DNA of 32,000 nucleotides from Candidatus Nanoarchaeia archaeon (GCA_028279745.1 JANQNC010000001.1:300001-332000), one strand, 5' to 3'. Shown: positions 5,946 through 31,287, numbered from the stretch's first letter. Notes: a model not told the origin generated them from the sequence alone. Made by a program: numbers and translations.

Positions 5946-6042
5946 CTAATTTTAGTGGTTTATCATTACCTTTATAAATAACCTATAAGTTCTTCTCATT
6001 AGAGGGATTTTCGGGAGATAGTCTCAGAAGATCTAAATTAAA

Positions 6043-6963: not shown

Positions 6964-6972
6964 TTTGTTAAG

Positions 6973-7278
6973 ATGGCTGAAAAAACATTTAATGAAAAAT
7001 GTTATTCTTTACTCAAGAAAGTTCCTAAAGGAAAAGTTACAACTTATGGAGAGATTGCAAAAGCACTTGGGGGTAAAGCATACCAAGCAGTAGGCAATGC
7101 AATGAACAAAAACCCTTATGCACCTAAAGTTCCATGTCATAGAGTTGTTAATTCAGATGGTTCTATTGGAGGGTTCGCTTTTGGAGTTAGTGAGAAGGTC
7201 AAGATCTTGAAATCTGAAGGTGTCGATGTTATTGATGGAAAAATAGTTGAGTTTGAGAAGAAGTTGTTTAAGTTCTAG
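6973..7278 (+). CDS. ogt: Single-domain MGMT-family protein (O6-alkylguanine-DNA alkyltransferase C-terminal domain only)
   Basis: 101 aa. Active-site PCHRVV is retained and the usual N-terminal domain is absent. The last 4 nt overlap the convergent Elp3 gene. Confidence 0.8.
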   Translation: MAEKTFNEKCYSLLKKVPKGKVTTYGEIAKALGGKAYQAVGNAMNKNPYAPKVPCHRVVNSDGSIGGFAFGVSEKVKILKSEGVDVIDGKIVEFEKKLFKF

Positions 7279-12645: not shown

Positions 12646-12858
12646 TTTAAGATTCTCGGATCAAACCTAAATATATAAGTTTTATCCATAGGGCAATATA
12701 TTAAGCCTATAATTAATAGTCTCTGATTTGATGATTCTTATAAAAAATAGAATAATTAATTGGATTAAATTGAAAATTAACTATCACAATATATGAAAAT
12801 GCGTTAAAATGCTTATTAAAAATAGGTTATATACTAAAATATCTTATAAAAAATAGAA

Positions 12859-13407
12859 ATGTTTATAAGGAAGTTCGTTCCTCCAAAAGAGCGGATGTTA
12901 AAAGAGAAATTGGGGGTGGACGAGAGAGATGCAGTTATACTCTCCATGTTTGCTAAAAATCCAGAAGTTAGTCAAACAGATTTAGCTGAAGCTTTGAAAC
13001 TGAGCCAGCCTTCTATCAATGCGCGAGTACAGAAACTAAAGAAAAAAGGACTATTATCATTAACAGCAGGGATAGAGTTCAACAAAACAGATATGTACAT
13101 GGCAAGAGTTGACTTTACCGCACCAAATTCTGAAGAAATATTGAGTCAGTTGCAGAACTGTTCTTTCTTCGTAAATGGATTCATAATGTCCGGAAGCAAT
13201 AATGTATCAGTCTTTATTGTAGGACATGATCTGCAGAGGATCGAGAACATAATCAGCATGCACCTAAGATCCAACCCAGACATAAAAGACATAAACATGA
13301 GTGTTGTCGTAAGTTCAGCAAAACCATTCATATATTCAGTAGACATAGAAAAAGAAGAAAATTCTGATTGTGAGAACTGCGACAAGTGCAAAAACAAAAA
13401 GGAATAA
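12859..13407 (+). CDS. Lrp/AsnC-like winged-helix transcriptional regulator with a Cys-rich C-terminal tail
   Basis: 182 aa. HTH segment VSQTDLAEALKLSQPSINARVQKLKKKGLL, then a RAM-like alpha/beta region, then the tail CENCDKC. ATG 12895 is an alternative start (see the finding on the 17-mer repeat). Confidence 0.7.
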   Translation: MFIRKFVPPKERMLKEKLGVDERDAVILSMFAKNPEVSQTDLAEALKLSQPSINARVQKLKKKGLLSLTAGIEFNKTDMYMARVDFTAPNSEEILSQLQNCSFFVNGFIMSGSNNVSVFIVGHDLQRIENIISMHLRSNPDIKDINMSVVVSSAKPFIYSVDIEKEENSDCENCDKCKNKKE

Positions 13408-13414
13408 ATCGTAA

Positions 13415-13888
13415 ATGAACCAACTAGCACATATATTCATAAGTTATCTCGTAGTTGATCTAATAATCCCAGATGCACAGCAGTACTTATTGCCAATAAT
13501 TCTTATATCATTATTTATGGATATAGATCACATTCCAGGATATTTTAAGATGTTCAAGATGTCAAAGAAAAAAAGAAAATCTTTGAACATGGATCAGTTG
13601 AACAAACTAGTTAGAAGCGGGATACAAGAACCGTTGGGTGTTTTGGTCATGTTAATAATTTTGGGTGTGTTGTACCTTCTGGGAATTAGAGACCCAGTTG
13701 TTTTGATTGCAGCAATCATAATACCTCTACACTGGTTGGTTGATTTTTTAACTGTGCACACAAGACCACTACTGCCATTTAACAATAAATTAGTTGTTCT
13801 GTTTTTTGATTCGATGAAACAAAGAATCGTGAGTGAGACAGCAATAACAACAGTAACAGGAATACTTTTCTTGATTGCTTACTTCTGA
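13415..13888 (+). CDS. Small polytopic membrane protein, possibly a YdjM/DUF457-like membrane-bound metal-dependent hydrolase
   Basis: 157 aa with several hydrophobic helices. The N-terminal His and the DIDH motif are reminiscent of that family. The family call is tentative. Confidence 0.5.
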   Translation: MNQLAHIFISYLVVDLIIPDAQQYLLPIILISLFMDIDHIPGYFKMFKMSKKKRKSLNMDQLNKLVRSGIQEPLGVLVMLIILGVLYLLGIRDPVVLIAAIIIPLHWLVDFLTVHTRPLLPFNNKLVVLFFDSMKQRIVSETAITTVTGILFLIAYF

Positions 13889-13981
13889 ATCAATCTAGTT
13901 ATAACTAACCTGGGATGATATTTTATAAGAAAAAGACAGCGACAGAAAGTTTTATAATTTAACTAAAAGAAACGAACTTAG

Positions 13982-15352
13982 ATGAATGTACATTCACTTG
14001 AAAAAATATACTTAAAAAGCCCTTTAGCTCTGCAAAACATATTAGTAAGCACTTACGGATTAAGAGAGCAAAGGATAAGATACGGAGGCATCTATAAAAC
14101 ACATCATAACTGGTTGCTTAAAACACAATGGTTACCTAAAGACGAACTAAACAAGATAGAAAGTAACTTATTAAGCCAAACCCTCCAGAATGCATTAGTA
14201 AACGTGCCATTCTATAAAGACTTGACTATAAAGAAAGAAGCTAGTTTAGAAGACTTCCCCACAATTCTAAAAAAAAGGTTTTTTGATGAACCAAACGCAT
14301 TCTTGTCAAAAAAATTTGCAAACAAAAAATTACTAACTCTCCACACTAGCGGCAGCACAGGGACTCCGTTGGCAATAAAAATGAATAAAGATACTAGGCG
14401 AAAATCTTACGCATTTATGTCTCGATTTTACAACACGATTGGTTTCAAGGCAGGTGAGAAAAAAGCAACATTTGTAGGAAGACGAGTTCAACTTCCAGAC
14501 AATAACAAACCTCCCTTCTGGAGATATAATCTTTTTGATAACCAGCTACTTTTCTCTTCATACCATACAAGCAAAAAAAATCTTTGCCACTACTTAAAAA
14601 AACTGGACAGATTTAAACCAAAACTGATAGAAGGATACTCTTCAAGCATTTTAAGAATTGCCCGACACATCCTGGAACACTCAGTAAACCTAAACCACGT
14701 ACCAAACTCAATTGCTGTTAGCTCTGAAACTCTTACAAAAAAACAGAGAGATGAGATAGAAAGTGCTTTTGGATGTAAAGTGTACAACCAATATGGATCT
14801 TCAGAAACTGCTTTATTTGCAAGCGACTGCGAACACCAAAAAATGCACATAAGTCAAGAACACGGAATAATAGAAGTTCTACAAAAAAATAAGCTTAACC
14901 GAAAAGGGGAAGGGGAGCTTATAGTCACAGGATTTATTAACCCTGTAACACCTTTTATACGGTATGCGATTGGAGACAGGGGCTCAATCTCTTACAAAAA
15001 ATGCAAGTGTGGAAGGCAATCACCCATTATTGAAAAGGTTGAAGGTAAGATAAATGACATAATAGTGACCCCTGACGGAAATCATGTTCCTTCTGCAGGA
15101 CTTATCTTGGCGTTTGAGTACTTGAACTCGATCAAAGAATCTCAGGTTGTGCAAGATAAAAAGGATGAAGTTTGTGTGAACATAGTTCCAAAACTCAACT
15201 ATAACAAAAAAGAAGAAAAATTCATGCTATGGGAGCTAAGAAAAAGATTGGGAAGCAAAATGAAGATACACATCCAAAAAGTAAAAGAGATAAAAGTGAG
15301 CTCAAATGGAAAATACAAATTTATAGTTCAAAATTACCTTAAGAAAAAATAA
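13982..15352 (+). CDS. Adenylate-forming ligase of the phenylacetate-CoA ligase (PaaK / CapK / F390-synthetase-like) family
   Basis: 456 aa with AMP-binding motifs TSGSTGTPL and YGSSET and a PaaK-like overall length. Substrate unknown. Confidence 0.8.
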   Translation: MNVHSLEKIYLKSPLALQNILVSTYGLREQRIRYGGIYKTHHNWLLKTQWLPKDELNKIESNLLSQTLQNALVNVPFYKDLTIKKEASLEDFPTILKKRFFDEPNAFLSKKFANKKLLTLHTSGSTGTPLAIKMNKDTRRKSYAFMSRFYNTIGFKAGEKKATFVGRRVQLPDNNKPPFWRYNLFDNQLLFSSYHTSKKNLCHYLKKLDRFKPKLIEGYSSSILRIARHILEHSVNLNHVPNSIAVSSETLTKKQRDEIESAFGCKVYNQYGSSETALFASDCEHQKMHISQEHGIIEVLQKNKLNRKGEGELIVTGFINPVTPFIRYAIGDRGSISYKKCKCGRQSPIIEKVEGKINDIIVTPDGNHVPSAGLILAFEYLNSIKESQVVQDKKDEVCVNIVPKLNYNKKEEKFMLWELRKRLGSKMKIHIQKVKEIKVSSNGKYKFIVQNYLKKK

Positions 15353-18337: not shown

Positions 18338-18344
18338 CTATCTT
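18331..18344. terminator. 14-nt perfect palindrome spanning two abutting convergent stop codons
   Basis: AAGATAG|CTATCTT. The nth TAG (18335-18337) and the reverse-strand TAG (18338-18340) are mirror images inside the palindrome. Confidence 0.25.
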
Positions 18345-19645
18345 CTTTTCAAATATAAGAAATCTGTAAAGTTATCTTTAAGACCGCTCAGTCCTTTCTT
18401 CAATATCTGAAGATCGTAAAGTTTTGCAGCATTTGCAGATGCAATAACTACTGTTCCTTTAGGATACTCCCCCTTAGATAATCGTTTTGCAGCCAAAGCA
18501 GTATCCCTTGCAGACACTAGCTTTACTCCTTTGAAATCTTTATCAAGAGTTTTCTTGCTCTGTTTTATCGCTTGGGGATGAGACCTTATTATTTTTACAT
18601 CTTTGATGCTTTGTTCAGGTCTTGCAAGAAGGCAATGCACTGCTTTCATCTTGTGAATGTTTTCTATAACTGATGTTGACTTAGTTAAAGACTCAATAGT
18701 CTCAATCACCATTCCTCCAACAGAATTTTGAACTGCCATCACACCTCTATCAATATCTCCATACGCAAGTGCAGTTGCTACTTTATCTGCAGTGATCAAA
18801 TATTTTATTTCAAACTTTTTTACCTTGTGTTTTTTCATCAGCTCTTTACAAGCCTGCTCACTGAAAGAACCTTCATCGCCCTGTATGCCAACAGTCAAAA
18901 CTTTCGGATTTACTTTAGAAGGTAAAAGTTTAGCAGATATTTTCTGGACTGCCCTCAACACATCCATTCTCATCTGCCTAGTGAACTTGTTCTGAGCTTG
19001 TAAATCACAAAACAACTGCCAGCTATCTCTTGTGGTTTGTTCCCTCACCTCTAAAAGTTTCTTAAAACCTTCAGTGTCTATACTTGAATGTTTAAGGTTA
19101 AGTTCATCAAGAATTCTTCCAACAAAATGGGTTACTCCTTGAGAGTATGCTGCAATCTTATCATGTTGTTTAGGTGTTAACTCAACGACATTAAAACCTT
19201 TCTTGTTAAAATAATCATACCAAAACTTATACCTATCTTCAGATGTACGTTCAGGGTGCATCACAATCCTCAATCCTTTTATGCCTTTCTTTGCAGAGTC
19301 AGGACCAAACATGGGGTGTGTTGCGATTATGTTGATGTCTTGCTGGATGTTCTTCTTCATGTGTCTGACGGGCAGCTCCTTAACAGAACAAACATCTATT
19401 ACAGTTGAACCTTTCTTAAACTTTAGTTTCTTAGTCACTTCATCCATCTTTGAGATAGGCACACAAAGAAATATGTTACTACATTTTAGAACCGCCTTTT
19501 CTGTTCCGTAATAAACTCCGATAGATTTGGCTTCCTTTGATTTGTCTGAAGTGTTGAATGCAACAACCTTAAAGTCTGGTTTGAGAATAGTTGCTAATAG
19601 CTGACCAAACCTTCCAAATCCATAGATCCCCACAGTCTTCTTCAT
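18338..19645 (-). CDS. Bifunctional prephenate dehydrogenase (TyrA) / prephenate dehydratase (PheA catalytic domain) fusion, no ACT domain
   Basis: 435 aa. N-terminal Rossmann GFGRFG and HPMFGP signature. The C-terminal ~185 aa carry VGIQGDEGSFSEQA...NFTDFLYL, matching the PDT catalytic domain. Confidence 0.85.
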   Translation of the reverse strand: MKKTVGIYGFGRFGQLLATILKPDFKVVAFNTSDKSKEAKSIGVYYGTEKAVLKCSNIFLCVPISKMDEVTKKLKFKKGSTVIDVCSVKELPVRHMKKNIQQDINIIATHPMFGPDSAKKGIKGLRIVMHPERTSEDRYKFWYDYFNKKGFNVVELTPKQHDKIAAYSQGVTHFVGRILDELNLKHSSIDTEGFKKLLEVREQTTRDSWQLFCDLQAQNKFTRQMRMDVLRAVQKISAKLLPSKVNPKVLTVGIQGDEGSFSEQACKELMKKHKVKKFEIKYLITADKVATALAYGDIDRGVMAVQNSVGGMVIETIESLTKSTSVIENIHKMKAVHCLLARPEQSIKDVKIIRSHPQAIKQSKKTLDKDFKGVKLVSARDTALAAKRLSKGEYPKGTVVIASANAAKLYDLQILKKGLSGLKDNFTDFLYLKRR

Positions 19646-19678
19646 CTTTGTTATTTTGGTGGTTGTTGTTTAAAAATG

Positions 19679-20677
19679 TTAATGTTTTCTCATCTGTTTA
19701 AGATAAAGACTAAGCTTTTTCTTGATCTTTTCTTTTAGCTCTTCACTGAAGGTTAGTTTGTCAACTACTTCATCCCAGTCAAGGTCTGGCATCTTTGTTA
19801 ATGACCCATTAAATTTTCTTCCTGCAAGTTTAACTTGTTCTTCAACTTTTTTTGCAGACTCAGAATTAAATGCTTTAATTGCTGGGAACTTACTGATAGA
19901 GTTAGCGCCAGCCTTCAACAAGAAAGAAGTATATTCGGGTCTGTCTTCCCAAATACCAAACTGGATGTCAATCTTTGGGAATTCAATTCTTGTTTTGGCA
20001 ATCCATTCACCCTGGTATTCTTTTGTGGGTGCAGGAGTGTTTTCGTAAACAGTGCCTTTATGAGGATTTAACCCATATATGTGAATCTTTTCAATGTTGT
20101 ATTTGTTAATCATGTCTTTCAGATATGTGAAATCAGCTATCTTTTCACCTAACCCGCAGATCATAGTCATAGCATTCTTCAAACCTAACTCGTTAGCATA
20201 CTCAAACATCTTAAAATAAGGAAGCTCAGGTTTTGAGGGACAAACTTTCTTATGCAGTTCAGGGTTAACAGTTTCTATACTTCCAACAACACCTTCAACG
20301 TAAGGTGCGTATTCAGTTAATGTTTCTTTGTCTAATGCTCCAATGTTAATCCAAAACTTTTCACCAGTTGCTTCGTGCATCTGTTGCAATAACTCTTTAA
20401 AATCTTCTTTGCTGAAAGCACCAATCCCCCCAGAGATAAAACCAATGTCCCAACCCATCTTTTTACATATTAGCAATTCTGCAAGCAAAGACTCGTTGCT
20501 TCTTCTGGCAATATTTCCTTTACTGTTCTTTCTAGGTTGAGTTGACATATAACAATACGCACAATCTCTAAGATCACAGTACCAACTAAAGAAAATAGCT
20601 CTCTCAAAACAAGTCTCATTTGGAAAGTTTTCTAAGAAAACTTTATTTGCCTCTTCCATAAGTTCGTTACTGCTCAT
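19679..20677 (-). CDS. Radical SAM enzyme, unassigned subfamily (BioB/ThiH/HydE-sized)
   Basis: 332 aa with the cluster motif YCDLRDCAYC (C-x4-C-x2-C) and a glycine-rich FISGGIG segment. Its start overlaps the U32 stop by 11 nt. Confidence 0.8.
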   Translation of the reverse strand: MSSNELMEEANKVFLENFPNETCFERAIFFSWYCDLRDCAYCYMSTQPRKNSKGNIARRSNESLLAELLICKKMGWDIGFISGGIGAFSKEDFKELLQQMHEATGEKFWINIGALDKETLTEYAPYVEGVVGSIETVNPELHKKVCPSKPELPYFKMFEYANELGLKNAMTMICGLGEKIADFTYLKDMINKYNIEKIHIYGLNPHKGTVYENTPAPTKEYQGEWIAKTRIEFPKIDIQFGIWEDRPEYTSFLLKAGANSISKFPAIKAFNSESAKKVEEQVKLAGRKFNGSLTKMPDLDWDEVVDKLTFSEELKEKIKKKLSLYLKQMRKH

Positions 20678-21929
20678 CGTGACCCTTCTGTTCTTTTTCT
20701 TTATCTATTTCTAAGTATAGTTTGTCGTTTGCTCTTACCTTATCTTTTATCGGAATAGTGATGTCGTTACCTTTACCTGCTTCTTCTGCATCTTTTTCAT
20801 TTACTTTTATAGATTCTACTTTTTGTTTTAATACTCCAGTTGTAGGACCCGTAATAATTATCGTATCACCAATCTTAATTTTTCCAGTTGTTATGTTAAA
20901 GTGTGCAACTTTGGGTTTTTCAAAATAGTTCTCAACAGTGCCTAAGAATTTCTTTTCTTTTTTAGCTTTTGATCCATACGCGTTCGCCCATTCTCCCAGT
21001 TTGTGACCTAAATAATATCCGCCTTGCCAAAATCCTCTGTTGAAAACAGTTTCAAGTTGTGCGATCCATTCTTCTGCTTTTTCTAAAGAGAATGTTTTGT
21101 TGTAATATGCGTCCACTGCTTCCCTGTAACACTTAGTCACAGTATTTACATAGTCTGGTTGCCTGCCCCTGCCTTCAATCTTCAGGATTGAAACTCCCGC
21201 ATCTACAATCTTGTCAATAAATTGTATAGTGCACAAATCTTTAGGGGACATAACATATTTGTTGTCTATATTTAATTCATCTCCTGTTTCTAAATCTGTG
21301 ACTTTGTAAGATCTTCTGCAAGCCTGCAGACAATCCCCCCTGTTAGCTGAGTGATTGTATTGAGCTAGACTCATGTAACACTTGCCAGAAATTGAGACAC
21401 ATAAAGCACCATGGATGAACATTTCTATTTTTATTAATTCGTTGTTTGGGCCTTTGATATTTTCTTCCTTAACTTTAGTGCATATTTCTTTTATTTGGGG
21501 CAGAGTTAATTCTCTTGCTAGAACAACAGTGTCAGCAAACTTCGAATAGAACTTAACTGCTTCAATATTACTTACATTAGCTTGAGTTGAGATATGAATA
21601 GGTAAATTGATTGAGTTAGCATAGTTTATTACAGCAAGGTCGTGTGCTATGACTGCTGTGATACCTGCTTCTTTTGCTGAGTTGCAGATTGTTTTTATGA
21701 GTTCAATCTCATCAGTGTAAACTACAGTATTTAGAGTTAGGTAAGATTTGACATTCTTATCTCTACAAATCTTAGTGATCTTCCTTAGATCATCTAAAGT
21801 GAAGTTATTTGCAGCTCTAGCACGCATATTCAGGTGTTCAACCCCAAAGTATACTGAATCAGCACCTGCATTAATTGCGGCCTGTAACGCCTCATATGAG
21901 CCAGCTGGAGCCATAATCTCTGCTTTCAT
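20667..21929 (-). CDS. U32 family protein ('peptidase U32'; TrhP/YegQ/RlhA/UbiU-like Fe-S protein)
   Basis: 420 aa. N-terminal MKAEIMAPAGSYEALQAAINAGADSVYFG is typical of U32. Four-Cys cluster C-x6-C-x15-C-x3-C (CVSISGKCYMSLAQYNHSANRGDCLQAC). Confidence 0.85.
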   Translation of the reverse strand: MKAEIMAPAGSYEALQAAINAGADSVYFGVEHLNMRARAANNFTLDDLRKITKICRDKNVKSYLTLNTVVYTDEIELIKTICNSAKEAGITAVIAHDLAVINYANSINLPIHISTQANVSNIEAVKFYSKFADTVVLARELTLPQIKEICTKVKEENIKGPNNELIKIEMFIHGALCVSISGKCYMSLAQYNHSANRGDCLQACRRSYKVTDLETGDELNIDNKYVMSPKDLCTIQFIDKIVDAGVSILKIEGRGRQPDYVNTVTKCYREAVDAYYNKTFSLEKAEEWIAQLETVFNRGFWQGGYYLGHKLGEWANAYGSKAKKEKKFLGTVENYFEKPKVAHFNITTGKIKIGDTIIITGPTTGVLKQKVESIKVNEKDAEEAGKGNDITIPIKDKVRANDKLYLEIDKEKEQKGHDEQ

Positions 21930-21975: not shown

Positions 21976-22001
21976 TTTATATATAAGTAAGATTATCTTA
22001 C
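21976..22001 (+). promoter_or_regulatory. TATA-like box plus 7-1-7 palindrome upstream of the toxin-antitoxin operon
   Basis: TTTATATATAA (21976-21986) sits about 25 nt upstream of ATG 22006. It is followed immediately by GTAAGAT-t-ATCTTAC (21987-22001). Confidence 0.45.
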
Positions 22002-22812: not shown

Positions 22813-23106
22813 ATGCCTAGACCAAGACTAAGACGAAGAGTGAAAGGAAACCCAAAAATAACTTACTTCAAGCCGGCAGGAGTAAGGATGCAGGAATTAG
22901 AAGAGACAACTCTGACAGTTGAAGAGTATGAGGCTGTGCGGCTAAAAGACTTTGAAGGGTTAGGACAAGAAGAGTCTGCAGCAAAGATGGAAGTCTCACA
23001 GCCAACATTCCACAGATTATTGTTAGATGCAAGAAAAAAGATAGCAGATGCAATAGTAAACGGAAAAGCGATAAAGATAGAAGGCGGCAGTTTTAAGATA
23101 AAATGA
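22813..23106 (+). CDS. DUF134 (UPF0251) family putative DNA-binding protein
   Basis: MPRPRLRRRV...TYFKP...LTVEEYEAVRLKDFEGLGQEESAAKMEVSQPTFHRLL...NGKAIKIEGG has the sigma-70 region-4-like HTH typical of DUF134. I start at ATG 22813; the ORF-track GTG 22804 overlaps an SD-like GAGTGA. Confidence 0.85.
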   Translation: MPRPRLRRRVKGNPKITYFKPAGVRMQELEETTLTVEEYEAVRLKDFEGLGQEESAAKMEVSQPTFHRLLLDARKKIADAIVNGKAIKIEGGSFKIK

Positions 23107-23477
23107 AAACAGTATTAGTGTTTGGATCAGAGGATTTTGAGTTTGACGATGGGGCAGTTAAGCTAGTTCCAGAACTGAAGGAAAAGTTAACAGACTATGT
23201 TGTGTTTAAGCTTTCAAGACCTGAACAGATAATGGACTTCTTAGGACATGACTTTATCATACTAGATGTGGCTGTTGGCATAAAAGAGCCTTGTTTGATT
23301 ACTGATCTAGACCAGATCAAGTATGGGAAAAAAATAACCGCTCATGATATGGATCTGGCAGCTTTCCTGAAAACATTAAAAGAGTTAGGACAGCTTGACT
23401 CTGTAAATATTGTGGCTCTGCCAAACGATAAAAAACCCGAGCTGGATAAGGTTATGCAGTTGATAAGAAGTGTGTAA
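23103..23477 (+). CDS. Hydrogenase maturation endopeptidase-like protein (HycI/HybD family), short form
   Basis: 124 aa. VLVFGSEDFEFDDGA (family pattern GN..-DDG), FIILDVA (metal-ligand Asp) and ITAHDMDL (metal-ligand His) appear in the expected order and spacing. ATGA overlap with DUF134. Confidence 0.55.
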   Translation: MKTVLVFGSEDFEFDDGAVKLVPELKEKLTDYVVFKLSRPEQIMDFLGHDFIILDVAVGIKEPCLITDLDQIKYGKKITAHDMDLAAFLKTLKELGQLDSVNIVALPNDKKPELDKVMQLIRSV

Positions 23478-23531: not shown

Positions 23532-24452
23532 ATGAATAAATCAAAAAAGGGGCTATTACTTGTATTAACAACAGCACTGATATCTGGAGTATCAATTTTC
23601 TTAAACGGGTTTGGAGTAAAAGGATTTGACTCATCCGTATTTACATTCTCAAAAAACTTACTTGTAGGCGTATTTTTACTTGCAGTAATAATGGGAGTTG
23701 GACAGTTTAGTTCATTGAAAGAGTTAAGCAAAAAACAATGGCTACAGCTAGTTGGCATAGGATTCATCGGAGGAAGCATCCCTTTCCTAATGTTCTTCAA
23801 AGGACTGCAGCTAACAACAGGAACAACTTCTGCATTCATACACAAAACCCTATTCATATACGCATCAATATTCGCGCTTATCTTTTTGAAAGAGAAACTA
23901 ACTAAATGGGTCTTAATTGGAGCGGGAATGCTTTTAGTTGGAACCTATTTAATGCTAAAGCCAGACTTCAGCTTTTCAATAGGGCACTTGTTAATTATTG
24001 GGGCAACAATATTCTGGGCAGTTGAGAATGTTTTGTCTAAGCACGTACTTAAAGAAGTTAAAGGAAATGTGGTTGCATTTGGTAGAATGTTCTTCGGAGC
24101 AGGCTTTATCTTTGCTTTCTTATTATTTACAGGAAAGGCACCAACCATAATATCAATGTCTCTCGAACAGTACTTATGGATACTTGTAACTACTGTGTTC
24201 TTGATGGGCTATGTGATGACATACTACAATGGGTTAAAGCATGTAAAAGTAAGCACAGCAACATCAGTTCTTGCTTTGGGAGCACCAATAACAACACTGC
24301 TTGGAGTTTTGTTTAAAGGCAGCGCAGTGAGCGTCTATCAAGTATTAGGCATGGTGCTGGTTGTTGCAGGAGTTATGTCAATAACAATACTATCTTACCT
24401 TTCATCATCTGTCGTAAAATCAAGAGATGTGGTTAAAGATGAATGGAATTGA
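23532..24452 (+). CDS. EamA/DMT-superfamily transporter
   Basis: Two-repeat polytopic membrane protein of EamA-like length. I start at ATG 23532 (GGTGA-N5-ATG); the ORF-track GTG 23523 lies inside the SD. Confidence 0.8.
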   Translation: MNKSKKGLLLVLTTALISGVSIFLNGFGVKGFDSSVFTFSKNLLVGVFLLAVIMGVGQFSSLKELSKKQWLQLVGIGFIGGSIPFLMFFKGLQLTTGTTSAFIHKTLFIYASIFALIFLKEKLTKWVLIGAGMLLVGTYLMLKPDFSFSIGHLLIIGATIFWAVENVLSKHVLKEVKGNVVAFGRMFFGAGFIFAFLLFTGKAPTIISMSLEQYLWILVTTVFLMGYVMTYYNGLKHVKVSTATSVLALGAPITTLLGVLFKGSAVSVYQVLGMVLVVAGVMSITILSYLSSSVVKSRDVVKDEWN

Positions 24453-25149
24453 GCTGGCAATCAGATTTTCTTATGTTGTTAATTCATTAAGGTACTGTGG
24501 ACCAGAATCAGAAGATGATTTCTTGAAATATCTCAATGGAGAAAGTAATGAGGAAGAAGTAAAAGAGTTATTCAAAAAATTTGAAGGATTCAGACCATAT
24601 ATGCAGCTAACATCAGAAAAAACAGGCAAAGATATGTTTGATTATGATGTTATAGAAGCATACTGGTTAGGAAATTCTCTTCTTGATGAATTCGATGGAG
24701 AAGATATGAAGAAAATAGTTGAGATGCTGGTTACTCGAGGATTGCCTAAGTCAATTGGGGACGAGTTGGTTAAGAATATGCCTGCAGAAGCATTTCCTCA
24801 CCACAGTTTTCATGTAATGTATGTGGGGCCTGGAAGAACAACAGGTACAGTTCCAACAAATATGGATACAATGAGCAAGTGTATTGCGTCAGAAGCAACA
24901 GTTGTTGAAGTTAACGAGGGAGAGTTAGTTGTTAAAACTTGTCCACTTGATAAGAAAGATGATAAATTTGTATTTGGGGAAGAGATCGAGAAAAAAGTCA
25001 AGTGGAAGAAAGAGATAACTCCTTCAATCAAAGTTGGAGATAAAGTTGCTTTGCATTGGGATTTTGCAGGGTTAGTTCTGACTGAGAGGCAGGTCGAGAA
25101 TTTGAAAAAGTATACCAAACAGACACTGGATACCGTAAACAACCTATAG
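24427..25149 (+). CDS. Uncharacterised protein with a C-terminal HypC/HupF-like segment
   Basis: 240 aa. The C-terminal KCIASEATVVEVNEGELVV...VGDKVALHWDFAGLVL...ENLKKY parallels the HypC of this window (MCLAVPGKIVEIKDDKAIV...EGDYVIIQGGVVV...TALKTY) and the canonical GDxVLVHxGFA motif. I recognise nothing in the N-terminal ~160 aa. ATG 24439 is an alternative start. Confidence 0.6.
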   Translation: MWLKMNGIELAIRFSYVVNSLRYCGPESEDDFLKYLNGESNEEEVKELFKKFEGFRPYMQLTSEKTGKDMFDYDVIEAYWLGNSLLDEFDGEDMKKIVEMLVTRGLPKSIGDELVKNMPAEAFPHHSFHVMYVGPGRTTGTVPTNMDTMSKCIASEATVVEVNEGELVVKTCPLDKKDDKFVFGEEIEKKVKWKKEITPSIKVGDKVALHWDFAGLVLTERQVENLKKYTKQTLDTVNNL

Positions 25150-25303
25150 ACAGCTCGTAATGCCACAATTTATGGGTTTTAGATGCCAGAATTCAGAGGT
25201 TTAAGACTTTCTTTACTACTTATTAGTGACGATATAATGAAAAGATTTAAATACTAGTTATGAATCACCATACAAGGCATTAAACAGTTATGAGGTGAAA
25301 AAC

Positions 25304-26356
25304 GTGATTATCCACTTAAACAAAAATTACTCACAAGACAGTTTAGACAGACTACTTACCAACATAAAAGAAACTGGTTTAAACGCTGAAGTCAGAGAAG
25401 GTAAATTCGAGACAGTAATCGACCTTTTCGGGGACACAAAGACAAGCGGTCTTACACCAGAACAGCTAAAGAACGATTATTCTATCATAAAAGATGTTAT
25501 GGTTATCCAGACACCTTACAAAAGGGTCGCAAGAAGAGATAGAAATGACAAGATAGTGAACTTAGGAAACCTAAAGATACGAAACAAGCACCCGATTATA
25601 ATTGCAGGACCTTGCTCTGTAGAAGATGAGGACACCATGATCGAGATTGCAAAAAAAGTAAAGAAAGCAGGAGCTAATATGCTAAGAGGCGGCGCATATA
25701 AACCAAGAAGCTCATCCTACTCATTCCAAGGAGCAGGACTAGAAGGACTTAAGATACTAGCAAAGTGCAGGGAAGAAACAGGCCTTCCAGTAGTAACTGA
25801 AGCAACAGGACTTTTTAGGCCAATAAACGGATCAGGAAAAATTGAACACATCCTTGAAAACGTAGTACAATATGCAGACATGATACAGATCGGAGCAAGA
25901 AACATGAAGAATTACGAGTTGCTAAAAATGGCTGCACACCTTACAAAAGAATCAAAGAAACCTATCCTGCTAAAGAGAGGTGAATATGCAAAAATTAGCG
26001 AATTCTTAAACTCAGCAGAATACATAGCTGATAGCGGGAATGATAACATCATACTTTGTTTAAGAGGTACGTTGACAAACGACACAAGACCAGACAAAAG
26101 ATATCAGACAGATGTAGATGACATACCAAGACTTATGAGAGAAACACATTTGCCAATAATATATGACCCAAGCCACGCATGTGGATTTGCGGAAGACGTT
26201 CCATTGTTAAGCAAACAAGCATTGATGGCAAGACCTGCAGGACTTATAGTCGAGGCTCATGTAGACCCAGTTAACGCAAAATCAGACGCAAAACAAACTA
26301 TAGACATAAACACTCTGAAAAACCTCATAGATTACAAAAACGAAAACTATTCTTAG
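25304..26356 (+). CDS. 3-deoxy-7-phosphoheptulonate (DAHP) synthase, class I-beta, with an N-terminal regulatory-type extension
   Basis: IIAGPCSVE, KPRSSSYSFQG, IGARNMKN and DPSHA motifs, with ~90 extra N-terminal residues as in Thermotoga-type enzymes. I start at GTG 25304 (GAGGTGA-N5-GTG); the ORF-track GTG 25295 is inside the SD. Confidence 0.88.
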   Translation: MIIHLNKNYSQDSLDRLLTNIKETGLNAEVREGKFETVIDLFGDTKTSGLTPEQLKNDYSIIKDVMVIQTPYKRVARRDRNDKIVNLGNLKIRNKHPIIIAGPCSVEDEDTMIEIAKKVKKAGANMLRGGAYKPRSSSYSFQGAGLEGLKILAKCREETGLPVVTEATGLFRPINGSGKIEHILENVVQYADMIQIGARNMKNYELLKMAAHLTKESKKPILLKRGEYAKISEFLNSAEYIADSGNDNIILCLRGTLTNDTRPDKRYQTDVDDIPRLMRETHLPIIYDPSHACGFAEDVPLLSKQALMARPAGLIVEAHVDPVNAKSDAKQTIDINTLKNLIDYKNENYS

Positions 26357-27309: not shown

Positions 27310-28125
27310 TTACACCTTAAACATCATCCTAAAAATCTTATCTAACCACTTATCTGGCATTATCCATTTCAAAAACATAAACATCTTTCCATCCATCGGA
27401 AGAACATATCTTGTTTTTGGATTATTTGACCTGCTTGCTTTATAGATTGCGTTAGCGATAACTTCTCCCGTAGGAGATCTTTTTGCCCTCTTGACAAAAT
27501 CAGTTTTTAATGCATTAGTCAACTTCCTGTAGGGTCTAGTCACTTTAACCTTGCCTAGGTGCTGCCAAGCAACTCGGTATAGATCTGTCTTAATAAAGCC
27601 CGGCTCAATCATCACAACGTTTATACCGAGATCTGAAACTTCTTGTCTTAGTGCATCTAATAATCCTTCTAATGCAAATTTCGAAGCGTTATACCAAGTA
27701 ATTATGCCTGCCGCAGCTCTTCCTGCAGTAGAAGTTACATTTATTATGTGTCCTGATTTTTGTTTACGCATATGTGGCAGGACTTCTTTTATTAATCTAG
27801 CATATGCAAAAGTGTTTGTTTCTAGTTGGGCTCTTGCTTGATCCATCGTAACATCTTCTAATGAACCATACTGAGCATACCCTGCATTGTTTACTAACAC
27901 ATCTATTCTTCCTTGCTCTTTGATTAATTTTTTAACAGCACTTTTCACTTGTTTATCATTTCTTACATCAGTATATAAAGTTTTACCCCCTAACTTTTCT
28001 AGGTCTTTGTCTGATTTTGCTCTAAAGTCAATGGCATATACTATATGCCCTTCTTTAAGAAACCGTTTAGCAGTAGCTTTACCTATTCCAGAAAATGCAC
28101 CGGTTATTAAAACAACTTTTTTCAT
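27310..28125 (-). CDS. Classical short-chain dehydrogenase/reductase (SDR)
   Basis: 271 aa with TGAFSGIGKA (TGxxxGxG), NNAG and the Ser...YNASK catalytic motif. ATGA overlap with the hypA stop; its stop lies 2 nt before the hypC start. Confidence 0.9.
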   Translation of the reverse strand: MKKVVLITGAFSGIGKATAKRFLKEGHIVYAIDFRAKSDKDLEKLGGKTLYTDVRNDKQVKSAVKKLIKEQGRIDVLVNNAGYAQYGSLEDVTMDQARAQLETNTFAYARLIKEVLPHMRKQKSGHIINVTSTAGRAAAGIITWYNASKFALEGLLDALRQEVSDLGINVVMIEPGFIKTDLYRVAWQHLGKVKVTRPYRKLTNALKTDFVKRAKRSPTGEVIANAIYKASRSNNPKTRYVLPMDGKMFMFLKWIMPDKWLDKIFRMMFKV

Positions 28126-28445
28126 TCTTCCACCTCGACACTCTTCAGCACAATGTCTTCGCCTTCTAGTACCTCAGGCACTTCACCACACTTAGGACAA
28201 AAAAATATATTCATATCATGTGAATGAGCCTCTATCTTTGGTTGGCCCTCAAAACCACACTTGCATTTTACTTTTGCAGGAGTCTCAATAACTTCAACTT
28301 CAAAATCTGCATGATCTTTTAACACGTTTTCCATATCTTTTGCAGGCAGATGAGCTAAAGCCCCACACTCAACTGTAATCTTCTTAACTTTACCTTGTTG
28401 TTTAGCTTGCTCGATAATGTTATGAGCCATAGCGTGTTCATGCAT
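28122..28445 (-). CDS. hypA: Hydrogenase nickel-insertion protein HypA
   Basis: MHEHAMAHNII N-terminus (the MHE Ni-binding motif) and the zinc site CKC...CPKC. I start at ATG 28445; the ORF-track start at 28463 is a TTG. Confidence 0.88.
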   Translation of the reverse strand: MHEHAMAHNIIEQAKQQGKVKKITVECGALAHLPAKDMENVLKDHADFEVEVIETPAKVKCKCGFEGQPKIEAHSHDMNIFFCPKCGEVPEVLEGEDIVLKSVEVEE

Positions 28446-29736
28446 CTTTCCTTTTACCTTCAAACTCTACTTCCAAGAAATGTGTTGAACATGAAAAGCA
28501 AGGATCATGAGATCTTATGAGTTCCTCTACTTTTATGATCAATTCTTCATTATTGAGATCTAGGATGTTTGGCAAGTATTCTTTTATTGCATCTTCCATG
28601 CACTTAAGGTTTTGAACTGTAGGAGTTACAATGTTAGCTTTAGTTATTGTGCCAGAATCGTCAACCTCATACTCATGGATCAAGAAACCTCTTGGTGCTT
28701 CAGTAACACCAACACCTCTGCCTGCTTTAACTTCTGCCTTGATAGGTTCCTCATCTTGAACTTTGAAATTTTCTAATCTTTTGATTATCTCTTCAATATA
28801 ATGAACAGTTTCAATACCTTGCGCGAAAGGTATCAAGAAAGGATTATTCGATGGGAACTTAATACCTGACTCTTCAAGAACTTTCTTTGCATTCTCATTT
28901 AATAAGTCAAGATTATTGTTCATCCTTGCCAAAGAACCGACCATATACGACTTTCCATCTTTAGTTATGAAGTTACAAGTAGATCTTTCTTCATGATACT
29001 CCTTAAAAAATTCATCAAACTGTTCTCTCGTATAAGTTTCACCAGTTGAACAGTATAAATCTCCAGTCAGCATAGGATACGTGTTTTCTTCTTTTATTGA
29101 AAAATACATTGTTTCCCTTTCAAAATCAGGATACTCTAAAGTTCCAAACAGCTTAGCTGCTTCAATTGCATCAGGTAATGCTTCTTTCAATCTTTGAACT
29201 AACTGATCAACTTGTTCTTGAGAAGGCGTCTTGTAAAAACCTCCAACCTGTGCAGAAACAGGATGTAAATCTCTGCCAGCAATTGTGAAAATTATGTCAT
29301 TCCCTAACTTCATAAGCTTTAGTGCCCTAAGCACAACGTCTTTATGGGTTTTAGCCAAATCCATACCAGACTCAGCACCCAGATAATCTGGCAAAGATAA
29401 AAAGTGCATGTGAGTAATGTGAGATCTTATCCTTTCTCCGATTGTGAATAGTTCCCTCAATAGTTTAGTTTGTTCGGTTACTTTAACACCCACTGAATCT
29501 TCAATAGCATAGATTGCTGCAATCTGGTGAGCACAAGAACAAATCCCACAGATTCTTGATGAGATCTCTGGAGCTTCATAATAACGTCTGCCTTTAAGCA
29601 TACCTTCAAAATATCTGGAACCTTCTATTGATTCTAGCTCGCATTTCTTAATCTCGTTATCTTCACCAATATTAAGTAAAAGCTTAGCGTGTCCTTCGAC
29701 CTTTGTTATATTGTTTAATTCAACTACTCTAGCCAT
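28438..29736 (-). CDS. hydA: [NiFe]-hydrogenase large (alpha) subunit, group 3b (sulfhydrogenase-type)
   Basis: 432 aa. N-terminal RICGICSCAH and C-terminal DPCFSCSTH Ni-Fe ligand motifs, followed by a 13-aa extension (FLEVEFEGKRKDA) for proteolytic maturation. Confidence 0.92.
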   Translation of the reverse strand: MARVVELNNITKVEGHAKLLLNIGEDNEIKKCELESIEGSRYFEGMLKGRRYYEAPEISSRICGICSCAHQIAAIYAIEDSVGVKVTEQTKLLRELFTIGERIRSHITHMHFLSLPDYLGAESGMDLAKTHKDVVLRALKLMKLGNDIIFTIAGRDLHPVSAQVGGFYKTPSQEQVDQLVQRLKEALPDAIEAAKLFGTLEYPDFERETMYFSIKEENTYPMLTGDLYCSTGETYTREQFDEFFKEYHEERSTCNFITKDGKSYMVGSLARMNNNLDLLNENAKKVLEESGIKFPSNNPFLIPFAQGIETVHYIEEIIKRLENFKVQDEEPIKAEVKAGRGVGVTEAPRGFLIHEYEVDDSGTITKANIVTPTVQNLKCMEDAIKEYLPNILDLNNEELIIKVEELIRSHDPCFSCSTHFLEVEFEGKRKDA

Positions 29737-30491
29737 TTTTTCTTAGCATCCTCTTTCTCTTTATATTTTAAACCTTCGAAAGCATCAATCCTTTGTTTGA
29801 TGAATTTCTCATCATACCCTTTCTCTTTTAAAACTTTGATCATAAGTTCAAAATTAGCATCCTGAGCAGGGCCTCTGCAACCCCAACAAACTAATCCACC
29901 ATTAGTGCAGACTGAGTTACAGCCCCCATTAGTTACAGGACCAAGACACGGAAGACCTTTTTCTAGTAAACAAGGATTTCCGTTATGCCTGCACTCAATA
30001 CAAACGGGTTTTGAGTACATCAAAGGTTTTTTGCCTCTTAATAAGTCATCAATAAACCCAAGAATCTCTTTTTTATCTGGAGGACAGCCTTGGATGTAAT
30101 AATCTACTTTAACATATTTGTCAACAGGACTTGGATCAACATCCGTAATCTCTAAAGCTTTATGGTAAATTAATGGTTGAATGTTTTCAGGAGGTGTGAA
30201 GTTTCTTAATGCTGGAACTCCTCCAGTAGTTGCACACGCACCTAAAGCTATGAAAATATCACATTGATCTCTGATCTTTTTTACCATCTCTTCATCGTGC
30301 TTAGATGTAACAACCCCTTCAAAGAAAACAATGTCTAAATGCCCGTCATACACTTTTTCTTTAATGAACGGAAAACTTTTTACATCTATCTTTTCTAAAA
30401 CTCCCAATAACTCTTCCTCGTTAAATATAACTGAAAGTAGACAACCTTGACATCCTGTCACGCTATAAAATCCTACTTTAGGCTTAGTCAT
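29724..30491 (-). CDS. hydD: [NiFe]-hydrogenase small (delta) subunit, group 3b
   Basis: The MTKPKVGFYSVTGCQGC start is typical of cytoplasmic group 3 small subunits, and several Fe-S Cys motifs follow. I start at ATG 30491, which overlaps the hydG stop by 8 nt. Confidence 0.88.
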   Translation of the reverse strand: MTKPKVGFYSVTGCQGCLLSVIFNEEELLGVLEKIDVKSFPFIKEKVYDGHLDIVFFEGVVTSKHDEEMVKKIRDQCDIFIALGACATTGGVPALRNFTPPENIQPLIYHKALEITDVDPSPVDKYVKVDYYIQGCPPDKKEILGFIDDLLRGKKPLMYSKPVCIECRHNGNPCLLEKGLPCLGPVTNGGCNSVCTNGGLVCWGCRGPAQDANFELMIKVLKEKGYDEKFIKQRIDAFEGLKYKEKEDAKKKWLE

Positions 30492-31287
30492 TTTTGAAAT
30501 TCTCCAGCTCATCCCATCTAAAGACAGGACCATCTAAACAAGTATATTTGCCATGAATCATGCAATGACCACACATTCCTAAAGCACATTGCATCAATCT
30601 TTCAGCACTTAAGAAAATTTGTTCCGATTTGAAACCTTTTTCTTTCAGTAATCCTATTATCTTGTTGATCATGATAGGTGGACCGCAAAGGAATGCAACA
30701 GTGTTTTCGCTGTTTATATCTAGTTCTTTCATCCTTTCCATCAGATAACCCGTTTTCATCTCAAAACAAGCCAGGTCATCACCTTCTTCTGCTTTGTCAA
30801 CAGACATCATCAAATTGTATTTATTTTTCCATTCAGGAGTTTCTCTTCTGAATAAAACATCATGAACACTTCTATAACCGAAGAAAAGATCGATGTTTTG
30901 GTAGTCTTCTCTGTTCTGGTCAACATAATCAATAATCCCTTTTAGTGGAGCAACACCACAGCCGCCACCTATGATCAAAAGGTTGTTGCCTTTTAGCTCT
31001 TGCATAGGATAACCTTTACCGTAAGGACCTCTGACCCATATCTCGTCACCTTCTTTTAGCTTTCCAAGACTGTTTGTTACTGAGCCAATCTCTCTAACGT
31101 TTAGTTTCATGTGATCTTTTGAATATGAACAGATAGAGATCGGAGCTTCACCAATACCTGGGAGAGATACTTGAATGAACTGACCTGGTTCGTGGTCAGT
31201 TTTGAAATCTATCACGATAGAGAAATTATCAGGGCTTTCTCTATAAAATTCTAAAATTTTTACCTTTTGTGGGATGTAGTCATTCAT
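30484..31287 (-). CDS. hydG: Sulfhydrogenase gamma subunit (FAD/NAD(P)H-binding, [2Fe-2S])
   Basis: 267 aa. Ferredoxin-NADP-reductase-like fold motifs (GGGCGVAPL) and a C-terminal CALGMCGHC...C cluster, as in PyrK-type proteins. Confidence 0.85.
   Translation of the reverse strand: MNDYIPQKVKILEFYRESPDNFSIVIDFKTDHEPGQFIQVSLPGIGEAPISICSYSKDHMKLNVREIGSVTNSLGKLKEGDEIWVRGPYGKGYPMQELKGNNLLIIGGGCGVAPLKGIIDYVDQNREDYQNIDLFFGYRSVHDVLFRRETPEWKNKYNLMMSVDKAEEGDDLACFEMKTGYLMERMKELDINSENTVAFLCGPPIMINKIIGLLKEKGFKSEQIFLSAERLMQCALGMCGHCMIHGKYTCLDGPVFRWDELENFKND

Follow-up and report, generated by a model that had tools for sequence, protein, structure and literature searches.

Within the window, by which we mean the whole 32,000-nucleotide stretch of Candidatus Nanoarchaeia archaeon DNA that was analyzed, three genes on the same strand encode a U32 protein, a radical SAM enzyme, and a fusion of prephenate dehydrogenase and prephenate dehydratase (TyrA/PheA). 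These genes and the features that accompany them are as follows.

21976..21986, minus strand: TATA-like box TTATATATAAA, approximately 50 nt 5' of the U32 ATG
20667..21929, minus strand: U32 gene, 420 aa, predicted Fe-S protein of a TrhP-like subfamily
20667..20677, minus strand: overlap of the U32 stop and the radical SAM start, 11 nt, ATGAGCAGTAA, read from the sequence
19679..20677, minus strand: radical SAM gene, 332 aa, family NF004911 (PRK06267)
19646..19678, minus strand: spacer of 33 nt, from the radical SAM stop to the TyrA/PheA ATG
18338..19645, minus strand: fused TyrA/PheA gene, 435 aa, prephenate dehydrogenase plus prephenate dehydratase
25295..26356, plus strand: DAHP synthase gene, with an N-terminal FXD domain (PF00793, 190 bits; PF18152, 37.5 bits)

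An earlier, sequence-only reading of the window had described the three genes as a tight unit, and direct reading confirmed the shared strand, the 11-nt overlap (radical SAM ATG at 20677-20675 and U32 TAA at 20669-20667), and the 33-nt spacer. The first radical SAM ATG was also consistent with the N termini of homologues in an alignment. The TATA-like box TTATATATAAA is likely the promoter of a U32-radical SAM transcript, and in this genome the two genes would almost certainly be cotranscribed. What did not hold was the use of tight spacing as the mark of a unit. The median same-strand gap in the window is 1 nt, 11 of 24 junctions overlap, 17 of 24 are no longer than 35 nt, and such short gaps also occur between clearly unrelated genes. 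Since close packing is the rule in the window, the spacing of the U32, radical SAM, and TyrA/PheA genes is not special.

The U32 protein consists of a U32 domain (PF01136, Peptidase_U32; 241 bits against a Pfam gathering score of 22.4) and a C-terminal beta-barrel region. The C-x6-C-x15-C-x3-C cluster noticed in the earlier reading is present as C177, C184, C200, and C204 (CVSISGKCYMSLAQYNHSANRGDCLQAC); the four cysteines were invariant in a 21-sequence alignment, and the motif was found in all 78 related loci. Its spacing is that of the published U32 Fe-S motif (PMC11574389), and by sequence the protein is a bona fide member of the U32 family. The best NCBIfam match was TrhP (NF011996), but the score of 194 bits missed the equivalog cutoff of 534 widely, and we therefore regard the protein as belonging to a subfamily distinct from TrhP. 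Scores for UbiU (NF047963; 170 bits, cutoff 440) and UbiV (NF047965; 54 bits, cutoff 275) were likewise below the cutoffs. Bacterial and DPANN relatives scored 188 to 203 bits against TrhP, and the subfamily is highly conserved, with 55 to 69% identity among relatives on contigs ranging from DPANN archaea to bacteria.

The characterized proteins closest in kind are TrhP (YegQ) of Escherichia coli and TrhP1/TrhP2 (YrrN/YrrO) of Bacillus subtilis, which carry out prephenate-dependent hydroxylation of tRNA U34 (PMC6599085), and UbiU/UbiV (with UbiT), which serve O2-independent ubiquinone hydroxylation with prephenate as the oxygen donor (PMC10990095). Indeed, prephenate has been reported as the oxygen donor in several U32 pathways (PMC10990095, PMC6599085, PMC5727448). 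The protein in the window shares with TrhP the U32 domain, the C-terminal barrel region, and the Cys motif; however, it is archaeal, whereas Sakai et al. reported trhP orthologues from bacteria only (PMC6599085). With UbiU and UbiV it has in common the U32 Fe-S character and the same Cys motif and, by analogy, it may share prephenate as the oxygen source and a cluster proposed to relay electrons. In contrast to that heterodimer, a single U32 gene is found here, no UbiT-like gene came to notice, and the host, a DPANN archaeon, is an unlikely ubiquinone maker.

In related loci, a 75-aa ferredoxin gene (Fer4_13/15) lay directly 3' of the U32 gene in 32 of the 75 cases with sufficient downstream sequence, a dedicated partner that sets the subfamily apart from TrhP. 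The ferredoxin gene is absent from the window, where the radical SAM gene holds the position downstream of U32. In seven DPANN-like loci (L038, L051, L088, L100, L102, L109, and L115), the U32 and ferredoxin genes were separated by one for a chorismate mutase of the AroQ type (PF01817; 62.8 and 32.4 bits, cutoff 27). A genomic tie between the U32 subfamily and prephenate thus exists in relatives by way of AroQ, which fits the prephenate requirement of TrhP. Moreover, in seven bacterial contigs the U32 gene had as its neighbor the gene for TrhO (NF001133; 254 bits, cutoff 170), the alternative enzyme for ho5U34 formation; in six of them the TrhO gene was directly 5' on the same strand. The window itself holds no gene for TrhO, TrmR, or CmoA/CmoB, and the lack of the last three near U32 is a further difference from TrhP. 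In the locus of the closest U32 relative (L166), the ferredoxin gene is followed by those for two UbiE/MenG-like methyltransferases, both far under the UbiE/MenG cutoffs; their assignment as CmoA/CmoB was rejected (CmoA, 24 bits, cutoff 193). The conserved partner of the U32 subfamily is the small ferredoxin and not a radical SAM enzyme. Because the recurrent partners are ferredoxin, AroQ chorismate mutase, and TrhO, a TrhP-like, prephenate-dependent hydroxylase is supported.

The radical SAM protein matched PF04055 (Radical_SAM) with 43.8 bits (cutoff, 29.5). The only curated family cutoff that it reached was that of NF004911 (PRK06267, a "hypothetical protein" equivalog), with 311.4 bits against 305; a deep-clade relative at L100 scored 276 bits, under the cutoff. 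The noncanonical CX4CX2C motif proposed earlier was borne out as C34, C39, and C42, invariant in 20 homologues, among which one further cysteine, C146, was also invariant. Since only this one extra invariant cysteine was found, no auxiliary cluster of the BioB type is evident. The motif occurred in 78 of the 81 locus ORFs and was kept down to 35% identity; we attribute the three exceptions to putatively miscalled long N termini. Spacing variants of this kind have been catalogued for radical SAM enzymes (PMC9477430). The AF2 model (pLDDT, 94.3) is a full TIM barrel of the BioB/HydE type, and the best PDB folds were those of HydE, HydG, MqnE, BioB, PylB, ThiH, and NosL, all at no more than 21% identity. 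The complete (beta/alpha)8 barrel is shared with HydE, BioB, PylB, and HcgA/HmdB (Foldseek TM-scores, 0.67 to 0.72), BioB-like GLGET and AGANSISKF motifs are present, and the motif spacing is noncanonical in HcgA as well (CX5CX2C).

Profile scores for these enzymes were nevertheless far under the cutoffs. BioB (TIGR00433; 41.5 bits against 225) was rejected, also in view of the single additional invariant cysteine, as were HcgA/HmdB (TIGR03957; 69 against 321, with CX4CX2C rather than CX5CX2C), PylB (35 against 348), and HydE (20 against 255). No family cutoff was reached for ThiH, HydG, NosL, CofH, or MqnE (MqnC, 17 bits; CofG, 16 bits), and the likeness to these aromatic-substrate enzymes was at the fold level only (TM-scores, 0.62 to 0.70; 11 to 17% identity). 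The distribution was also narrow, with only 175 representative clusters at E<1e-3 among 1.84 billion proteins. By profile and structure comparison, then, the protein lies outside every characterized family and belongs to NF004911, an uncharacterized family essentially confined to DPANN archaea, unlike HydE, BioB, PylB, and HcgA/HmdB.

Gene neighborhoods were compared for 80 radical SAM loci, 80 U32 loci, 5 TyrA/PheA loci, and extra U32 and radical SAM look-ups. The physical coupling of U32 to the radical SAM gene, as seen in the window, recurred in part: a U32 gene was within 7 kb in 7 of the 80 radical SAM loci, plus the window, and within 7 to 10 kb in 8 of 81 main-clade loci (about 10%), but approximately 90% of radical SAM loci had none inside 7 kb. 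The closest relatives of the window's radical SAM enzyme (L001 to L037, including its sister, L004) had no U32 gene nearby, and the same was true of L169, L171, L175, and L176, four of the five loci from other lineages that were looked up without bias. In a deep clade, about 40% identical, U32 was near in all four loci (L088, L100, L168, and L173), of which L173 had been chosen without bias, as the 50%-cluster representative P0253. Overall, eight or more different arrangements were seen, spread over several clades of the radical SAM tree. They included three direct tandem or overlapping pairs, covering both gene orders (the window; L059 and L088), and divergent neighbors (L038, L051, and L173). 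In others (L043, L055, and L100), a second radical SAM gene, encoding an uncharacterized CX3CX2C enzyme of about 380 aa, lay between the two. This second gene was found beside U32 in L043, L051, L055, L089, and L100 and directly 5' of the NF004911 gene in L062.

Proximity was seen in 6 to 7 loci against approximately 0.6 to 1.0 expected (Poisson P, 1e-4 to 1e-5, uncorrected for shared ancestry), and yet this is not above the level of unrelated aminoacyl-tRNA synthetase genes. Those for ValRS and CysRS were linked to the radical SAM gene as often as U32 was. U32-linked loci had a mean radical SAM identity of 0.61 and fell into 3 groups, compared with 0.62 and 3 groups each for ValRS and CysRS; because the phylogenetic spread is equal, the linkage is at the level of background synteny. 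The most widely dispersed neighbors were ABC-transporter genes, not U32. A true functional link, however, would likewise give rise to many arrangements in several clades, and a facultative link is possible. The association is best read as weak and lineage dependent rather than as an obligate partnership.

We therefore considered the possibility that the NF004911 enzyme truly serves as an accessory to a DPANN hydroxylation system made up of U32, ferredoxin, and chorismate mutase, with TyrA/PheA as a bystander. The enzyme might then modify the hydroxylated nucleoside, use a molecule derived from prephenate or chorismate, or mature or activate the U32 protein. The main-clade and deep-clade loci with U32 nearby, the varied arrangements, and the second radical SAM gene that links the two argue for such a partnership, as do the structural relatives ThiH, HydG, NosL, and MqnE, whose substrates are aromatic amino acids or chorismate derivatives. 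Against it stand the roughly nine-tenths of radical SAM loci, the closest relatives among them, that have no nearby U32 gene, the four unbiased look-ups, the equal linkage of ValRS and CysRS, the dispersal of the ABC-transporter genes, and the U32-ferredoxin pair, which is widespread in bacteria without any NF004911 protein. On balance, we regard this partnership as a tentative alternative and rather unlikely.

It is improbable that the U32 protein is instead a small-molecule (quinone-like, as for UbiU/UbiV) hydroxylase or a true protease, and not an RNA hydroxylase, with the radical SAM enzyme in the same small-molecule pathway. The UbiU and TrhP scores are close to each other and both far under the cutoffs, two UbiE/MenG-like methyltransferases follow the ferredoxin at L166, and enzymes of the BioB/HydE type usually take small molecules as substrates. 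However, TrhO, which acts on tRNA U34, adjoins the subfamily in the seven bacterial contigs, the methyltransferases at L166 are far below their family cutoffs, and the high identity of DPANN members to bacterial ones is in keeping with a substrate found everywhere, such as RNA. Nor did a UbiT- or UbiV-like partner come to notice. To our knowledge, moreover, quinone biosynthesis is generally missing from DPANN genomes.

The TyrA/PheA protein has both a PDH_N domain (64 bits, residues 33 to 122) and a PDT domain (140 bits, residues 252 to 434), the latter match extending to the C terminus, and from its sequence is a bifunctional TyrA-PheA in one chain. The domain search found neither an ACT regulatory domain nor a chorismate mutase domain, a difference from known TyrA-PheA fusions; Archaeoglobus, for example, has an AroQ-TyrA-PheA fusion. 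Full-length homologues at 40 to 52% identity were present in CPR bacteria and in Melainabacteria-like and DPANN-like contigs. The CPR fusions, annotated as [quoted passage not shown] share the PDH_N, TYRAAT1_C, and PDT architecture and the HPMFGP motif. Even the nearest relative shares no more than 52% identity with the protein, and the architecture is found widely among CPR bacteria, which suggests a separate evolutionary history. In approximately 180 related loci, TyrA/PheA was next to neither U32 nor the radical SAM gene (0 of 80 radical SAM loci, 0 of 80 U32 loci, and none of the extra loci). The U32 and radical SAM genes were absent from the five loci of TyrA/PheA relatives, the nearest of which adjoin genes for an HD hydrolase and an aminotransferase.

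The spacer in front of TyrA/PheA holds a T5 run and TTTTTAAA, centered approximately 27 nt 5' of the ATG; the same octamer occurs 17 to 37 nt 5' of the start codons at 16690 and 23523, also in the window. These elements could be a candidate archaeal terminator and the promoter of a leaderless mRNA, and because the spacer contains them TyrA/PheA may be transcribed separately from its own promoter. The DAHP synthase gene does lie 3.4 kb away as had been noted (3366 nt between its start and that of U32), but on the other strand and beyond six called ORFs. With a DAHP synthase near the radical SAM gene in just 1 of 80 loci, and near U32 in none of 80, it is context only. The sequence-only reading had proposed that all three genes serve one dedicated pathway of anaerobic modification, dependent on prephenate or tyrosine. 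This proposal would draw on the common strand and compact layout (3.6 kb), the prephenate dependence of U32 enzymes (PMC10990095, PMC6599085), the chorismate mutase clustered with the subfamily elsewhere, and the DAHP synthase, but it is very improbable and, as the gene set is not conserved, in large part refuted already; in addition, TyrA/PheA consumes prephenate and does not supply it, its spacer carries terminator- and promoter-like elements, its evolutionary history seems to be separate, and equally tight spacing is normal between unrelated genes of the window.

We lean toward the reading that the locus brings together three genes, each with a history of its own, in the very compact genome of a DPANN (Woesearchaeota-like) archaeon and that it encodes no dedicated three-gene pathway. 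The U32 protein would most likely hydroxylate an RNA pyrimidine at C5 independently of O2; by analogy, the best guess is tRNA U34. We know of no ho5U-type modification reported from archaea. By analogy with TrhP, RlhA, and UbiU/UbiV, the oxygen would come from prephenate, and the predicted [4Fe-4S] cluster would hand the two electrons on to a small ferredoxin. The radical SAM enzyme would cleave SAM at the cluster bound by CX4CX2C and probably has a small molecule as its substrate; the tie to U32 is facultative. TyrA/PheA would be an ordinary enzyme of the Phe/Tyr branch, of a kind that CPR bacteria commonly have, that adjoins the other two genes only in this genome among the loci examined.

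A more speculative reading, which we consider unlikely, is that of a variable DPANN set in which a prephenate-dependent U32 protein is accompanied by a ferredoxin and a chorismate mutase of its own and by one or two uncharacterized radical SAM enzymes (NF004911 and the CX3CX2C enzyme of about 380 aa), with NF004911 as a true partner. If so, a new archaeal RNA modification or cofactor would be made by the NF004911 enzyme, either from the hydroxylated nucleoside or from a by-product derived from prephenate or chorismate.

Three adjacent genes on the minus strand of the window encode a U32 Fe-S protein, a radical SAM enzyme (rSAM) and a fused TyrA/PheA protein, with the prephenate dehydrogenase part N-terminal and the prephenate dehydratase part C-terminal.

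Genes of the trio and the promoter-like element preceding it
20667-21929, minus strand: U32 protein, 420 aa (Pfam Peptidase_U32, 241 bits)
19679-20677, minus strand: radical SAM protein, 332 aa (Pfam Radical_SAM, 43.8 bits)
18338-19645, minus strand: TyrA/PheA, 435 aa (Pfam PDH_N and PDT; ACT domain absent)
21976-21986: strong TATA-like box, TTATATATAAA, about 50 nt upstream of the U32 gene

As read from the sequence, the rSAM ATG (20677-20675) lies ahead of the U32 TAA (20669-20667), giving an 11-nt overlap, and a 33-nt spacer separates the rSAM stop codon from the TyrA/PheA ATG. The cysteine motifs C-x6-C-x15-C-x3-C and C-x4-C-x2-C are present in U32 and rSAM, respectively. The sequence-only reading was thus right about the trio in all details (open reading frames, overlap, spacer and both motifs). 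We infer a common transcript for U32 and rSAM. The TyrA/PheA gene may have its own leaderless promoter; its spacer contains a T5 run and the octamer TTTTTAAA, centered about 27 nt before the ATG, and this octamer recurs 17 to 37 nt upstream of two further start codons in the window. The tight spacing had also been taken as the sign of a unit, and this was not borne out. Among the 24 same-strand junctions in the window the median gap was 1 nt, 11 junctions overlapped, and 17 were at most 35 nt. Two pairs without an evident functional relationship, Na+/H+ exchanger followed by endonuclease III and EamA transporter followed by DUF6390, showed a 1-nt gap and a 26-nt overlap, respectively. Since close packing is common to unrelated pairs, tight spacing is no evidence for a functional unit here. 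Downstream of the DUF6390 gene (24427-25149, plus strand; PF19927, 154 bits), after 145 nt, comes a DAHP synthase gene with an N-terminal FXD domain; the DUF6390 protein may have a part in aromatic metabolism.

The window is archaeal and DPANN-like, and homologues of each of the three proteins were found chiefly in Woesearchaeota and Nanoarchaeota MAGs. Other genes in the window encode 2-oxoacid:ferredoxin oxidoreductases, a diphthamide-synthesis protein, the DAHP synthase, Elp3 (radical SAM plus GNAT; 7275-8948, minus strand), a TtcA/NcsA-like PP-loop ATPase (6043-6963, plus strand) and a [NiFe] hydrogenase. Elp3 and PP-loop ATPases of this kind are typical tRNA modifiers, Elp3 acting at position 34. 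The [NiFe] hydrogenase genes, including maturation genes, occupy 28122-31997 (minus strand) and 23103-23477 (plus strand); four cluster genes encode the large, small, FAD/NAD-binding and 4Fe-4S subunits, HypA is encoded with them, and a weak HycI-like maturation protease gene 5 kb away adjoins a DUF134 gene. A 456-aa open reading frame (13982-15352, plus strand) has no Pfam match, carries the adenylate-forming motif HTSGSTGTP and resembles phenylacetate-CoA ligase or F390 synthetase; it may encode a divergent acyl-adenylate enzyme.

The trio had been proposed to be a dedicated prephenate-dependent module, and conservation of the adjacency did not support this. A genome scan with rSAM gave 80 loci from distinct Woesearchaeota-type MAGs, in which neighbors were identified by tblastn with the window proteins, and a metagenome scan with U32 gave a further 80 loci. 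TyrA/PheA was found at none of the 80 rSAM loci and none of the 80 U32 loci; DAHP synthase was found at 1/80 and 0/80, respectively. The fusion itself is common in contigs of CPR bacteria and in Melainabacteria-like and DPANN-like contigs (40 to 52% identity). Its nearest relatives are flanked by genes for an HD hydrolase and a class I/II aminotransferase, and neither U32 nor rSAM was found beside them. Therefore, the trio is unique to this genome. We regard TyrA/PheA as an ordinary enzyme of the Phe/Tyr branch whose position, in an extremely compact genome, is due to chance. The locus is real, but the earlier interpretation was too far-reaching; the three genes do not represent a biological unit of general occurrence, and pathway models should not include the Phe/Tyr enzyme.

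The U32 "peptidases" are increasingly recognized as a class of hydroxylases that work without O2 and take their oxygen from prephenate. To our knowledge, no in vitro system exists for them so far, nor are their redox partners known. The four cysteines of the U32 protein were invariant in a 21-sequence alignment, and the motif was present at 78/78 loci. For U32 "oxidases," C-x6-C-x15-C-x3-C has been described as the Fe-S motif (PMC11574389). The protein most likely adds a new archaeal member to the known prephenate-dependent Fe-S hydroxylases. With 194 bits (cutoff, 534), a score shared by its bacterial relatives, it falls outside the TrhP equivalog, and trhP orthologues were earlier reported in bacteria only (PMC6599085). 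Identity within the subfamily was 60 to 69% among DPANN-like contigs and 54 to 58% in bacterial-looking contigs, some of which have 56 to 60% GC and come from gut metagenomes. Searching PDB sequences with the U32 profile yielded no match at E<1e-3, and no literature on U32 together with DPANN or Woesearchaeota was found.

Partners of the U32 subfamily were identified by de novo neighbor clustering followed by tblastn and HMM searches. A gene for a 75-aa single-cluster ferredoxin (Fer4_13/15) lay directly downstream of U32 on the same strand at 32 of the 75 loci with enough downstream sequence. At seven DPANN-like loci, a small AroQ chorismate mutase gene lay between the two, so that a prephenate-producing enzyme is encoded within the U32 operon; the two mutases scanned matched PF01817 with 62.8 and 32.4 bits (threshold, 27 bits). 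No description of such an arrangement was found in the literature searched.

AroQ chorismate mutase genes between the U32 and ferredoxin genes (L numbers denote related loci)
L038, 4954-5199, minus strand
L051, 4384-4632, minus strand
L088, 8290-8562, plus strand
L100, 8226-8456, plus strand
L102, 8218-8463, plus strand
L109, 1424-1729, plus strand
L115, 1158-1478, plus strand

Moreover, the gene for the O2-dependent tRNA U34 hydroxylase TrhO (NF001133, 254 bits; cutoff, 170) adjoins U32 in seven low-GC bacterial contigs (L117, at 5949-6980, L120, L132, L135, L150, L157 and L160), in six of them as the directly preceding gene with the same orientation; two alternative hydroxylases are thus encoded side by side. 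TrhP and RlhA depend on prephenate, which is also the oxygen donor for UbiU/V (PMC6599085, PMC5727448, PMC10990095). Together with this published requirement, the ferredoxin, chorismate mutase and TrhO neighbors point to a TrhP-like, prephenate-dependent U32 hydroxylase that would be served by its own ferredoxin. The proposed prephenate link is supported for U32, through the chorismate mutases of its relatives, and is not supported for TyrA/PheA as a pathway member.

The ferredoxin, the chorismate mutase and a second radical SAM protein that accompany U32 elsewhere were not found within the 32-kb window. Lack of the ferredoxin is not unusual, because 16 of 34 close U32 loci likewise lack it. 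The idea that rSAM substitutes for the ferredoxin was rejected, as L038, L051, L061 and L088 have both and those 16 loci have neither. The second radical SAM protein, uncharacterized and of about 380 aa, has a canonical CX3CX2C after a CxxC, matches PF04055 and Fer4_12, and could not be assigned to any named NCBIfam family.

Genes for the second radical SAM protein
L043, 5590-6729, minus strand: adjoins U32
L055, 5774-6913, minus strand: adjoins U32
L051, 2860-4071, minus strand: adjoins U32
L100, 5757-6893, minus strand: adjoins U32
L089, 33-317 (partial), plus strand: adjoins U32
L062, 2998-4155, plus strand: directly upstream of rSAM

At the locus of the closest U32 relative (L166, 69% identity; 12792-14403, plus strand), U32 is followed by an unannotated 87-aa open reading frame with a PIN-domain gene next to it (the two may be a toxin-antitoxin pair), then by the ferredoxin and two methyltransferase genes; the upstream side carries riboflavin genes and a gene for a chorismate-binding enzyme. 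Assignment of the methyltransferases to CmoA/CmoB or TrmR was rejected, as they are generic UbiE/MenG-like proteins scoring far below the cutoffs.

The rSAM protein fell into no characterized family. The only NCBIfam cutoff that it reached was that of NF004911/PRK06267, "hypothetical protein" (311.4 bits; cutoff, 305), and its scores were far below every cutoff for the HmdB, BioB, PylB, LipS1/2 and HydE models. Its confident AF2 model (pLDDT 94.3) is a full TIM barrel, and the best PDB matches were HydE, HydG, MqnE, BioB, PylB, ThiH and NosL at 11 to 21% identity. Besides C34, C39 and C42, just one further cysteine, C146, is invariant, which gives no indication of an auxiliary cluster of the BioB type. 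CX4CX2C was kept in relatives down to 35% identity; comparable spacing variants in the superfamily have been catalogued (PMC9477430). With 175 representative clusters at E<1e-3 among 1.84 billion proteins, the family is small; its named members are DPANN, distant relatives carry no more specific names than "biotin synthase-like enzyme" and "radical SAM protein," and the literature search found no paper mentioning PRK06267. Six full-length representatives with about 30% identity (P0274, P0277, P0278, P0290, P0294 and P0297) lack CX3-5CX2C and may be cluster-less paralogues or use a different motif. MacB/FtsX-type ABC-transporter genes (permease and ATPase), in many cases accompanied by one for a large secreted protein, are convergent to rSAM at 21 to 25 of the 80 loci, in about 10 lineages (e.g., L001, 7948-9159, and L004, 8948-11316, both minus strand).

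Whether rSAM is a true partner of U32 was weighed separately. At 7/80 rSAM loci a U32 gene was located no more than 7 kb away (L038, L043, L051, L055, L059, L061 and L065, the last with a distant U32 paralogue), and rSAM was found at 2/80 U32 loci (L088 and L100). Six to seven co-locations compare with a chance expectation of 0.6 to 1.0 (793 kb of flanks; genomes of 0.8 to 1.3 Mb). In a deep branch of the rSAM family, at about 40% identity, all four known loci are U32 linked (L088, L100, L168 and L173, the last obtained by unbiased look-up of representative P0253). Layouts vary: overlapping tandems occur in both orders (U32 first in the window; rSAM first in L059 and L088), and the genes are divergent neighbors in L038, L051 and L173 or separated by others in L043, L055, L061, L100 and L168. 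The second radical SAM, moreover, adjoins U32 at five loci and rSAM at one. However, about 90% of rSAM loci are unlinked to U32, including the closest relatives of the window protein (L001 to L037, with sister L004), where no U32 gene was found nearby, and in four further independent lineages U32 is absent from the flanks (10 kb except at contig ends). In their rSAM proteins, U32-linked main-clade loci are also closer kin (mean identity, 0.61; 3 groups) than randomly drawn sets (0.53 ± 0.024), and loci linked to the unrelated ValRS and CysRS genes gave the same pattern (0.62; 3 groups each), reflecting inherited synteny. A naive Poisson test looked very significant but was set aside, because ValRS and CysRS match the counts and phylogenetic spread through shared ancestry. 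The widest-dispersed rSAM neighbors are instead the ABC-transporter genes, and the U32-ferredoxin pair occurs in many bacteria without such an rSAM. On balance, therefore, a true functional partnership appears rather unlikely; rSAM represents an orphan family whose association with U32 is weak and facultative.

NF004911 emerges as a well-defined, DPANN-restricted orphan radical SAM family worth characterizing. The more useful by-products are the U32-chorismate mutase-ferredoxin operon of DPANN relatives, together with the two radical SAM families found alongside at some loci. A very conserved U32 subfamily extends into DPANN archaea; the ferredoxin, chorismate mutase and, sometimes, radical SAM enzymes repeatedly encoded with it are concrete candidate partners for reconstitution, and these neighbors provide independent genomic support for the prephenate requirement.
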